Positions 5,626-15,205 of a DNA stretch of 64,000 nucleotides are shown piece after piece. The position numbers and the translations under genes were made by a program. The DNA is from Candidatus Bathyarchaeota archaeon (GTDB lineage: Archaea; Thermoproteota; Bathyarchaeia; Bathyarchaeales; Bathycorpusculaceae): NCBI GenBank assembly GCA_963777155.1, contig CAVZPM010000002.1, forward strand, positions 1-64,000, in the 5' to 3' direction. Under the pieces are notes generated by a model. The model was not told where the DNA came from, did not search any database, and saw only the letters and a list, made by a program, of their open reading frames with translations. Positions within the stretch are counted from its first letter, which is position 1. Each line of letters opens with the position of its first letter.

Positions 5626-5703
5626 TGGCGGGTCCGACGGGAATTGAACCCGCGACCCCCGGATTAAAAGTCCGGTGCTCTAGCCTGACTGAGCTACGGA
5701 CCC
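5626..5703 (-). tRNA. tRNA-Lys(UUU), no intron, encoded CCA
   Basis: Reverse complement GGGTCCGTAGCTCAGTCAGGCTAGAGCACCGGACTTTTAATCCGGGGGTCGCGGGTTCAATTCCCGTCGGACCCGCCA folds as a cloverleaf with anticodon TTT. Confidence 0.97.
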
Positions 5704-12584: not shown

Positions 12585-13463
12585 TTGAAATTTGGAATAA
12601 TGACGCGGAACATGGAAGCCTGGAGCTCTACTCAAGTTCGAGAAGCCCTAACTAAACGAGGGATTCCATACGAATGCTTCACTTTCCCACGTCTTGTGGC
12701 AAGACTTGCTTACAGACCTTACTTTAAAGTCAATGGTACAAGTATTTTAGATGAATTAGATGCACTAATCATTCGCCCAATTGGACGCGGTTCATTAGAG
12801 GAATTGGTTTTCCGCATGGATATGCTCTACAAGCTTGAGCGCCAGGGATTCTACATGGTTAACCCGCCGACCGCCATCGAACACTGCGTCGACAAATATG
12901 ACATTTTAGCGCTTCTAGAAGACGTTGGTGTCCCTGTACCTCGCACTTTAGCCACCGAAAGCGTAAACGAAGCCATAAAAGCATTTCATGAACTCGGAGG
13001 CGACATAGTTGTTAAACCCATCTTCGGCTCACGCGGACAAGGAGCCACACGCGTAAATGATATAGACATCGCCGACACGGTCTTCAAAGCCATAACCTTC
13101 CACCATGGCGTTATCTACATGCAAGAATTCGTACCTCACGGAACCTCAGACATACGAGCCTTCGTTATCGGAGACCAAGTCGTTGCATGCATGCGCAGGG
13201 TAGCTACAGGATGGAAAACAAACTATAGTCAAGGAGCCAAACCGGCACCAGCAACGATCAGTAAAGAATTTGAGGAAATAGCTGTTAAGTCAGCTAAAGC
13301 AGTAGGCTGCAAGATTGCTGGCGTAGATATCCTTGAGGGACCAGACGGTCCTCGCATCGTAGACGTAAACAGCCAACCCGGCTGGAAAGGCTTGCAGGTA
13401 GTTGCAAAAGTTAACATTGCCGAAGAAATAGTCAACTTTGTGTTGACAGAACTGAAAAAATAA
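12585..13463 (+). CDS. RimK-family ATP-grasp alpha-L-glutamate ligase (MptN/CofF-like)
   Basis: VVKPIFGSRGQG, QEFV, DIRAFV, WKTNYSQG, GVDI, DVNSQPG. Confidence 0.88.
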   Translation: MKFGIMTRNMEAWSSTQVREALTKRGIPYECFTFPRLVARLAYRPYFKVNGTSILDELDALIIRPIGRGSLEELVFRMDMLYKLERQGFYMVNPPTAIEHCVDKYDILALLEDVGVPVPRTLATESVNEAIKAFHELGGDIVVKPIFGSRGQGATRVNDIDIADTVFKAITFHHGVIYMQEFVPHGTSDIRAFVIGDQVVACMRRVATGWKTNYSQGAKPAPATISKEFEEIAVKSAKAVGCKIAGVDILEGPDGPRIVDVNSQPGWKGLQVVAKVNIAEEIVNFVLTELKK

Positions 13464-14468
13464 TTACTTGCCTGACAAGAATCAGAGTGTAGGGGTCATC
13501 GGCGACCTGCGGAAACTGTGTTTCTTTTCCTTTCTTTATTAGAACCCGTTCCTTGTTTTCTTTAAATTCACCTAGAAAGTAAGCAGATAAGCCATACTTG
13601 GCTAATGAGGCAGTGACTTTTTCTTGCGCTTTAGGAGAAACAGCCGCCAAAATCGTACCCGTCGAAGACATTGACAACATTTGCTCATCTGTGAGGTTAA
13701 AGTGTTGTTTTAGGGCATAGACTTCCTTTGGGAAACGAGATTTTTTCCCAATCAACCCTTAACCCAACTTTCGATGCCTCAGCCAATTCGTTGAGAGCTG
13801 CCACAAACCCGCCTTCAGTCGCATCATGCATTGCATGCACGTCTTCAATTTCCGCAAGCTGAAGAGCCTCTCTTACACAGCTTTGCATGTGAACCAGTTT
13901 GGCGAGTTTCTCTTGTGTGTTAACTCCGAAGAGTTCTTGCGCTTCTTCCTTGTGAGTGAGTGAAAAGTTGGTTATTGTTTCTAAACCCAAGCGGTTTTGT
14001 GCACAAAATCAAATCACCTGCCTTGGCGTTTCCCGGCGTAATCAATTTTCGTGGTTCTACAGTTCCGTAAACCGTGCAGACACCGAGCATATCTTTGAGG
14101 CTGTCGTACATTCCTGTGTGTCCACGAACAATTGCAACGCCTAATTCGTCGACAGCTTGGCATGTTTGCTTCATGATTTTCTGGAAAACTTCTGGTTTTG
14201 TCCCTTTTGGTCCAAGGAGGTTTATTGTGCAGAATTCTGGTTTAGCCCCAAACAGCGCTACATCCGAAGCTGCATAATGTAATCAGAAGCCATCCAAACC
14301 ACTCTTCAGGCACTCCCAGTGCATGGGTCCGTTGCAACCGCCACGTACTTGCCATGTAAAAGATGGACTCCTGCATCATACCCAATCATGGGCGGAACGA
14401 TTACTCGAAAATCCTTCTTTATACAACTAAGCAATTTTTGGAGATCTTCGATTCGAAAGTTTCCCCAT
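13432..14468 (-). CDS. AIR synthase-related (PurM/HypE/ThiL superfamily) protein, several frameshifts
   Basis: Fragments MGKL.., GYDAGV, ATDP, SDVA.FGAKP, RGHTG, GDLILCTK, HAMHDATEGG spread over several frames. Confidence 0.8.
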
Positions 14469-14482
14469 ATTTCTCATTCTCC

Positions 14483-15038
14483 TTAAATATAAATTTTTAG
14501 TACCTTGCTTTTCTGTAGTAGGCCTATTAATAGCACTTATTATCATGTTCGGGTACGAGGTAACTTCCGTTGTAGACTGCTGAGTAAAGCATGGGCTCAT
14601 ACCTTCAGGCGCATATGAGGCAAAGATAGACGACGCCTGAAACAAAATGCAGATGAAGCGTCCTGTAATTCCAACGACGACGCCAGCGACTGGCACTTTT
14701 TGGAAGAACCCTGCAAATCCAAGCACACCGAACGGCAGTGTATAATCCAGAGCACTGAGGTAGAAAATGGGTTTGACGACAAATGACTGCGAGCTGCAAC
14801 AAACCCGAATACAGCGCCTGCGAATATACCAATTTTGGCTCCCGTCTTAAAGCGCAAGCCAAATTATAGGTACCATCCAAGGTGTAATTGAGCCTCCTTC
14901 GTGGCTAAAAACGAGTGACTGACATAAGCTAAGGCCCTGCCAACGCCACAAATATTGTTATTTCTGCGAGGATTTTGTTGGATTGTATGTTGTCTTTAAA
15001 TATTTCTTAGGGTTAGGTTCAGTATTGGTTGTGTTCAA
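14483..15038 (-). CDS. thiT: ECF-type thiamine transporter S-component ThiT, heavily frameshifted
   Basis: Fragments KILAEITIFVALA, GGSI, MVPIIWLA, GAKIGIFAGAVFG, LDY.LPFG.LGFAGFF, RFI.HFVSGV, SYAPEGMSP, YSAVYNGSYLVP; TPP riboswitch directly upstream. Confidence 0.8.
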
Positions 15039-15042
15039 GTTT

Positions 15043-15140
15043 GTTTTTCCCTCCGCCAGTATTACCTGGTTCAGGTTCCTAAGGGTCGACAGCAAACAGC
15101 CGTCCTCTCAGCCAGGTCACTTTCCCAGCTCCCCAAGAAC
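15043..15140 (-). ncRNA. TPP (THI-box) riboswitch
   Basis: Reverse complement GGGGAGCTGGG...CCTGGCTGAGAGGACGGC...GCTGTCGACCCTTAGGAACCTGAACCAGGTAATACTGGCGGAGGGA has the UGAGA, ACCC, ACCUGA, UAAU loop and GCGnAGGGA hallmarks. Confidence 0.92.
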
Positions 15141-15205
15141 TAATGGGATAATGTTTTTAGGTGATATTTTAGTTTTCCTACCCAAACACTAACGAGTTGA
15201 TTAGC

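Follow-up and report, generated by a model that had tools for sequence, protein, structure and literature searches.

Thiamine pyrophosphate (TPP) riboswitches are described as 'sometimes present' in archaea, where 79 riboswitches were counted in Euryarchaeota, 6 in Crenarchaeota and 1 each in Korarchaeota and Thaumarchaeota, and TPP elements of Thermoplasma go back to an earlier report (Rodionov et al. 2002, as cited in McCown 2017, PMC5473149). A 2021 paper names the fluoride riboswitch as the sole natural riboswitch of archaea to have been established by experiment (PMC8241225). In a 2024 review, TPP is classed under 'strand exchange' with downstream platforms, and 'direct occlusion' is kept for classes such as SAM-II and preQ1 (PMC10907184); these three papers are cited from excerpts. 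Here we describe a TPP riboswitch in front of thiT, the gene for a thiamine-specific S component of an energy-coupling factor (ECF) transporter, in a stretch of 64,000 nucleotides (nt) from a Candidatus Bathyarchaeota archaeon (contig CAVZPM010000002.1, hereafter the window). The locus is a genuine TPP riboswitch of RF00059, an ordinary member of the known family. The new part is its conserved layout: the Shine-Dalgarno (SD) sequence is a strand of helix P4, there is no proper P1, the start codon follows within 4-9 nt and the predicted leader begins at the aptamer. With moderate confidence, we propose that the riboswitch makes up essentially the whole 5' untranslated region (UTR), about 105 nt, of an operon of thiT and a PurM-like gene, and that it would work as an OFF switch with a competitor strand on its 5' side.

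Identity and conservation of the aptamer

When the whole window was scanned with Rfam cmscan, the TPP model RF00059 was matched on the minus strand with 60.8 bits (E 1.9e-09; gathering score 54.3 bits) over model positions 1-105 of 105. This bears out the initial annotation, which had read a complete TPP aptamer on this strand from the letters, by a score over the gathering threshold. Two matches only were above threshold in the window, and the other one is a tRNA gene at 5629-5703 of the minus strand (RF00005, 72.6 bits). The copy in the thiT leader is the only TPP match in the genome (2,288,322 bases in 39 contigs, 90.6% complete).

For comparison, we used an alignment (A1) of 59 distinct aptamer-to-start sequences from relatives, which are kin to each other and to which all counts out of 59 refer. 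The relatives with ThiT are recorded as metagenome-assembled genomes of Candidatus Bathyarchaeota or Bathyarchaeia from soil, peat and bog, and the Bathyarchaeia-like group includes three contigs under other names (L051, L068 and L070). The parts of the aptamer and its surroundings that carry the argument are as follows.

15031..15145, minus strand: TPP riboswitch aptamer (RF00059 match), with helices P2-P5 at 15134-15050
15073..15082, minus strand: J2-4 and the 5' strand of P4, UUAGGAACCU, target of the 5' flank in the predicted ligand-free fold; GAACCUGA is invariant in 59/59
15050..15054, minus strand: SD sequence GGAGG, of which A15052, G15051 and G15050 belong to the 3' strand of P4
15036..15047, minus strand: A-rich spacer AAAACAAAC (15047-15039, 9 nt) and the TTG start codon of thiT (15038-15036)

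Both the pyrimidine-sensor arm (P2/P3 with the CUGAGA junction) and the pyrophosphate-sensor arm (P4/P5, ACCUGA...GCG..AGGGA) are present. A truncated variant of the hydroxymethylpyrimidine pyrophosphate (HMP-PP) type is ruled out because both sensor arms are complete. The motifs CUGAGA, GACCC, GAACCUGA and GGCG-AGGGA are invariant in all 59 sequences. Counted on the stated structure, 99.3-100% of the cells of P2-P5 are paired, and RNAalifold found both-sided (compensatory) changes in 6 of 22 pairs. The observed covariation score was reached by 0 of 500 shuffles, which is not a probability since the sequences are kin.

On the other hand, the classical closing helix P1 is vestigial in these aptamers. 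RNAalifold recovers P2, P2a/P3, P4 and P5 and calls no P1; in the register of Rfam, just 52.9% of the P1 cells are paired, and the window's own P1 consists of 4 pairs and one C.A mismatch. Moreover, the duplex of the 5' flank with the 3' tail, which would be P1, has a median energy of -0.7 kcal/mol compared with -1.2 kcal/mol for shuffled flanks. A closing helix of the kind looked for in a TPP riboswitch is therefore not found here.

The same element occurs in 34 of the 36 other genomes of the genus (33 over the cut-off; the two genomes without a match are only 58% and 65% complete), and the match thus lies well outside what chance would produce. A random hit of the TPP model is ruled out by this conservation together with that in the class Bathyarchaeia, in which 92 of 151 sampled genomes are over the RF00059 cut-off, 48 of 79 genera have a match and up to 4 copies are present per genome. 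In the other families of the order, 8 of 24 genomes are over the cut-off, and the rest of the phylum gave 20 of 130 genomes from four families, with one more matching below the cut-off. The initial annotation had regarded the element as a rarity in a lineage where it is little described. The survey of Bathyarchaeia genomes does away with the rarity, as TPP riboswitches are routine in this abundant uncultured group of soil and sediment, and leaves the scarcity of description in place: a full-text literature search found no paper on a TPP riboswitch in Bathyarchaeota, and 'Bathyarchaeia' and 'riboswitch' co-occurred solely via a reference title. The compact archaeal layout is undescribed in the literature searched, though Rodionov 2002/2017, outside its coverage, may describe the layouts of Thermoplasma.

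Position of the ribosome-binding site

The ribosome-binding site lies inside the aptamer, since GGAGG (15054-15050) shares bases with the 3' strand of P4. The SD sequence is GGAGG in 52 and GAAGG in 7 of the 59 sequences, and three of its bases (A, G and G) are paired with invariant U, C and C, giving the P4 pairs C-G, C-G and U-A in 59/59. The RNA past the aptamer is A-rich, not U-rich. In 53/59 a start codon follows AGGGA by 4-9 nt (ATG 26, GTG 21, TTG 6). In the window, AGGGA ends at 15048, and the initial annotation was right in placing GGAGGGA 9 nt before the TTG at 15038; the relative L078 shares this TTG and 9-nt spacer, its start region reading ...AAACTTGAA. A separate count of 46 thiT loci found the core in 41, of which 32 have an in-frame start 5-8 nt past AGGGA, and most of the remaining 9 look like frame breaks or odd start codons in their assemblies. 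At the thiT start position of L026/L067, L064 and L074/L080, 5-7 nt after AGGGA, ACG, ATT or ATA is found, which may reflect either non-standard initiation codons or mistakes in the assemblies.

The 16S rRNA was not found in the window's own genome, and three relatives of the genus were used instead; in all three the 3' end is GGAUCACCUCCU, with the anti-SD CCUCC. Among the long open reading frames (ORFs) of this genome, SD-like 5-mers are most frequent 15-11 nt ahead of the first ATG (131/867). The geometry across the 59 related sequences supports, as an implication, the translational OFF switch by an SD buried in the aptamer that had been suggested at first.

Promoter and transcript start

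The space between the aptamer and the divergent valS is 51 nt (15146-15196). The initial annotation had reasoned that a promoter must be squeezed in there, and this gap does hold a sequence like a transcription factor B recognition element (BRE) and TATA box, GGAAAACTAAAATAT at 15178-15164, which is the likely promoter.

15164..15178, minus strand: BRE/TATA-like element, GGAAAAC-TAAAATAT, a conserved motif with a putative promoter role
15135..15141, minus strand: predicted transcript start and 5' flank AGUUCUU, nominally the 5' strand of P1 and proposed to be the competitor strand against P4
15197..17689, plus strand: valS, divergent and intact, 830 amino acids (aa), tRNA-synt_1 330.5 bits

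A motif of the AAAAC-TAAWATAT type, with the TATA part starting 44-30 nt before the GGGG of P2, is present in 43/59 and is kept whatever the upstream gene is. The TATA centre of archaeal promoters lies about 26 nt upstream of the transcript start. From this spacing we infer that transcription starts at A15141 or G15140, 6-7 nt before P2, and the whole leader would therefore be aptamer, with a 5' UTR of about 105 nt. The AT-rich TATA-like box is nearly symmetric and lies 26-33 nt before the TTG of valS (15197) on the opposite strand; we may speculate that this one box drives both divergent transcripts, valS being leaderless.

A candidate competitor strand on the 5' side

The first 6-7 nt of the predicted transcript are complementary to the invariant GAACC in the 5' strand of P4. 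In the minimum free energy fold of the window RNA without ligand, the flank AGUUCUU pairs with UUAGGAAC; GUUCUU of the flank and GGGG pair with CCUUAGGAAC, which displaces P4 and leaves AGGGA mostly unpaired. The earlier statement that there is 'no separate expression platform' thus stands for the downstream side, whereas on the upstream side the flank of 6-7 nt looks like a competitor strand against P4.

We compared duplex and fold energies, all of which are model values. Across the 59 sequences, the duplex of the flank with J2-4 and the 5' strand of P4 has a median of -4.5 kcal/mol compared with -1.6 kcal/mol for shuffled flanks; it beats the shuffled flanks in 52/59 and is -4 kcal/mol or lower in 42/59. 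As a bacterial control, aptamers were located by Rfam in 8 of 20 thiT loci scanned. These aptamers end 31-173 nt before the thiT match, their P1 has a median of -4.2 kcal/mol, and their duplex of flank and J2-4 has a median of -0.4 kcal/mol and reaches -4 kcal/mol in 0/8. For transcripts from 7 nt before P2, the SD-open fold is more stable than the aptamer fold by a median of 1.4 kcal/mol, and it is lower or within 2 kcal/mol of the aptamer fold in 48/59. Such near-equal energies fit a two-state switch that ligand binding could tip. The modelled folds suggest a competitor helix on the 5' side that would free the SD when TPP is absent.

In the mechanism that we propose, transcription from the box at 15178-15164 would begin about 7 nt before P2, and the leader would present GGAGG as the 3' strand of P4, followed by the short A-rich spacer and the start codon. 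When TPP is bound, the P4/P5 arm would form and be clamped against the P2/P3 arm, so that the SD would be buried and initiation blocked (OFF). When TPP is absent, AGUUCUU would pair with the invariant J2-4 and P4 5' strand (..AGGAAC..), extend P2 and displace P4, and the SD would be freed (ON). The vestigial P1 would have been given up. A platform that consists of the first 6-7 nt of the transcript, 5' of the sensor, and competes with P4 for GAACC would be a mechanism undescribed for the TPP class, and we put forward this more specific claim tentatively.

It is rather unlikely, in our view, that the same riboswitch acts by pure direct occlusion, in which TPP would stabilise P4/P5 over the SD and the pairing of the flank would be incidental, with no role in switching. 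The position of the SD within the invariant P4 speaks for such a simple mode. On the other hand, the flank types GUUC, GGUU and AGGU all stay complementary to GAACC, in shifted registers; most flanks beat their shuffled versions, whereas none of the bacterial aptamers comes to -4 kcal/mol; and the two folds are nearly isoenergetic in most of the sequences.

Several points weigh against the competitor strand, and some of them speak for direct occlusion. Because the target sequence never varies, covariation of the competitor helix is not scorable, and flanks swapped among the sequences give the same median duplex energy, a control that is uninformative for the same reason and cannot discriminate. 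The competitor helix is weak in L009, L014 and L016 and in the GC-rich clade L083-L091, which has a better P1. Moreover, the P4/P5 hairpin alone is stable (-9.9 kcal/mol), and the SD may for this reason be partly masked even without ligand. The 59 sequences represent about six distinct flank types among kin, and the bacterial control has n=8, three from one family, the two sets being measured with slightly different scripts. In addition, only about 15% of the long ORFs of this genome have an SD-like motif by a crude measure, the window combines a TTG start codon with a 9-nt spacer, the maximum of the 4-9 nt spread, and no RNA run among the public sequencing runs searched matched the stretch.

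Frame breaks in the operon

No long open frame is present on the minus strand between 15038 and about 13464. The initial annotation had noted a broken thiT frame, and a frameshift-aware alignment confirms about ten frame changes in it, all single-base (about six missing and four extra bases); the breaks extend into the next gene, which had escaped notice. The same annotation had expected the broken frame to hide the locus from automatic annotation, but a routine Rfam scan finds the aptamer regardless.

14483..15038, minus strand: thiT, encoding the thiamine-specific ECF S component, interrupted by about 10 single-base indels; stop codon TAA at 14485-14483
13464..14468, minus strand: gene of the PurM/HypE fold, second in the operon; 332 codons kept, with six +1 insertions

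The window thiT scores 38.6 bits with PF09515 (cut-off 25.8) only when read through 1 stop, the best single fragment giving 21.9 bits, and 115 of 176 residues are identical to the ThiT of relatives. The PurM-like gene, aligned in the same frameshift-aware manner, is identical to the orthologue of relative G002 in 270 of 332 residues (81%) with no in-frame stop, and its breaks are all of one extra base (near 14453, 14317, 14280, 13991-4, 13735 and 13479); a length of exactly 332 aa is kept in over 100 clusters of this protein. Together, the two genes have about 16 single-base indels in 1.5 kb (15001-13479) and no larger deletion or nonsense change. The flanking genes valS and RimK-like (292 aa) are intact.

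Environmental contigs from four public soil or wetland runs were compared with this patch. The six pieces listed below are 97-99.5% identical to it and all lie in the PurM-like gene, and the number of gaps in each equals the number of frame breaks that it spans.

13615-13829: contig piece with 1 other letter and 1 gap
13409-13644: contig piece with 6 other letters and 1 gap
13800-14409: contig piece with 17 other letters and 3 gaps
13737-14103: contig piece with 6 other letters and 1 gap
13407-13812: contig piece with 10 other letters and 2 gaps
14055-14422: contig piece with 12 other letters and 2 gaps

One base is explicitly left out at 14279 and at 14314, and the places of the other gaps were deduced from the counts. 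For the thiT part, no near-identical contig was found in the four runs, the best piece having 33 other letters and 24 gaps. None of the public runs contained more than 0.29 of the sampled words of the stretch. The closest species representative has 76% DNA identity over the patch, and the indels are therefore not placeable base by base against an orthologue.

We regard the frame breaks as probably a local artefact of assembly or consensus, and real, recent decay as unlikely, though it deserves some weight. Thus, the operon is probably functional in the organism, and the broken frames at this locus are probably not biology. The point that weighs most against this is that the indels are confined exactly to two co-transcribed genes between clean neighbours, as relaxed selection predicts. 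If so, thiT and the PurM-like gene would be decaying pseudogenes in this genome and the intact aptamer a leftover without a regulatory role. Elsewhere, the genome is largely clean, with 1 of about 35 full ABC-ATPase domains split and stops in 2 of 56 radical-SAM matches, one of which is below the cut-off, and this also fits a truly dead operon, as do 24 other ORF-poor regions matched in at least two frames, which indicate that broken genes exist elsewhere. We nevertheless hold a dead operon to be quite unlikely. All the events are single-base, the PurM-like gene keeps its length and its identity with nothing but +1 insertions, and the contigs with matching gaps would make the decay very recent yet rich in indels. 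Moreover, neither ThiC nor a second ThiT locus was found in this genome, and 10.2% of the bin lies in matches of at least 1 kb between its own contigs, at 93% identity on average. The bin thus appears to mix close strains or species, which could corrupt the consensus.

In each of the 24 ORF-poor regions, an intact paralogue matches 2 or 3 reading frames on the same strand (for example C20:1736-4836, C29:28519-30602, C37:93697-95359, C8:58807-59774 and C18:1884-3082 of this genome, G000); the regions are further frameshifted genes, several with paralogues of 77-92% identity, possibly mobile elements. A codon-usage detector of frame switches over the whole genome was dropped, as its positive control recovered no more than 2 of the roughly 16 known breaks. 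Near-duplicate contigs are seen among C17, C22, C28 and C27, with 98.6% identity over 5.6 kb for C17/C28 and 85-95% over several kb for C17/C22. Within the genus, frame breaks are not restricted to this assembly: the single-contig relative L046 (G003:C1) has valS in two pieces (568 + 235 aa) and likewise the PurM-like gene (147 + 213 aa), with one split in each.

Regulated genes and thiamine metabolism

The gene that comes after the aptamer in the relatives is intact and encodes 177-196 aa; it scores 146.7 and 135.6 bits with TIGR02357 (cut-off 108.45) and also matches Pfam Thia_YuaJ. The order valS <- / aptamer -> thiT -> PurM-like <- RimK-like is common to the nearest relatives. For wider loci, 14 stretches were taken and the aptamer was placed by pattern in 12. 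All of these stand before a gene of thiamine or ECF-S-like type, as a leader of a thiamine gene should: thiT follows directly in 10/12, and in the other 2 a different ECF-S-like gene and a methyltransferase follow. After thiT, an intact PurM-fold gene of 331-335 aa is found in 8/10, being split in one and absent in one.

In one of the 8 loci, from another family, a gene for a KaiC-like ATPase lies between thiT and the PurM-fold gene (L036, G039:C83, 3886-4596; 236 aa, PF06745 109.8 bits), and the ORF listing suggests a KaiC-like ATPase in the same place in L006 and L010, from other families of the order. The two loci with the different gene pair are L040 (G005) and L041 (G028), where the aptamer stands before genes for a membrane protein of ECF-S-like type (PF07155 match, weak at 33 bits) and for a class I methyltransferase. 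In L040, the pair of thiT and PurM-like gene lies 2.4 kb further on, and no second aptamer was found in that genome.

The PurM-like protein has AIRS and AIRS_C domains and is below every NCBIfam equivalog cut-off. Its orthologue scores 89.7 bits for SelD (cut-off 125), 85.5 for ThiL (TIGR01379, 184.15) and 81.4 for HypE (TIGR02124, 251.6), so that it does not pass as ThiL or as HypE. Compared with solved structures, the protein stands at a similar distance from HypE, SelD, PurM and ThiL. It is labelled HypE or hydrogenase maturation factor in records of the Joint Genome Institute, and the HypE label in public records is doubtful for this co-regulated gene. Canonical ThiL is encoded elsewhere in the genome, at C25:2780-3739 (246.3 bits compared with 184.15), and also in all four relatives checked; the PurM-fold gene of the operon is therefore a separate paralogue, and may be a candidate thiamine-salvage enzyme.

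ThiC (PF01964) was found in 1 of 5 genomes searched; it was not found in this genome at its 90.6% completeness, nor in G012, G014 and G039, and the set without ThiC includes a single-contig relative of 96% completeness. This suggests dependence on thiamine or hydroxymethylpyrimidine from the environment, and such a dependence on thiamine or a precursor matters for cultivation attempts. An EcfA-A'-T module is present at C38:140196-142455. These archaea presumably import thiamine or a precursor under feedback by TPP.

Comparison with known systems

It is most improbable that the aptamer acts on the transcript, through early termination or a ligand-dependent decay of the RNA, instead of on the initiation of translation: bacterial TPP riboswitches often act on transcription (PMC10907184, in the excerpt used) and archaeal mechanisms are as yet without bench tests, but the start codon 4-9 nt after the aptamer in 53/59 leaves no room for a terminator, the RNA behind it is A-rich instead of U-rich and the SD itself is a helix strand.

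The Bathyarchaeia leader, with its SD inside the aptamer and the proposed competitor on the 5' side, is a compact and highly conserved test case for the coupling of ligand to expression in archaea. If our proposal is true, no mechanistic model of an archaeal TPP riboswitch would precede it, and archaeal genetics would gain a minimal leader of about 105 nt under ligand control.

Among archaeal systems, the elements of Thermoplasma (via the excerpt of PMC5473149) are also TPP aptamers, but come from a different phylum. The fluoride riboswitch of Thermococcus kodakarensis is archaeal, cis-acting and presumed to be translational as here (PMC8241225, in the excerpt used); it belongs to another ligand and family and is bench-tested. 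The bacterial members of RF00059, such as the translational thiM riboswitch of E. coli and RSthiT of L. lactis (PMC8862789), have the same pocket motifs and P2-P5 as here, and the bacterial thiT leaders share the type of regulated gene and the predicted logic of OFF on ligand. On the other hand, the eight bacterial thiT aptamers have a clear P1 and leave a long distance to thiT, in contrast to the vestigial P1 and the nearby start codon here. Similarly, the TPP class is filed as strand exchange with downstream platforms in the 2024 review, whereas the SD here is itself the 3' strand of P4. The arrangement resembles that of SAM-II and preQ1-I/II, placed in Group 1 of that review (PMC10907184), in which the ribosome-binding site lies within the ligand-stabilised aptamer and there is no downstream platform. 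These classes achieve it by an H-type pseudoknot, whereas the aptamer of Bathyarchaeia, from another class, does so within a three-way junction, to which the proposed competitor strand on the 5' side would be added.

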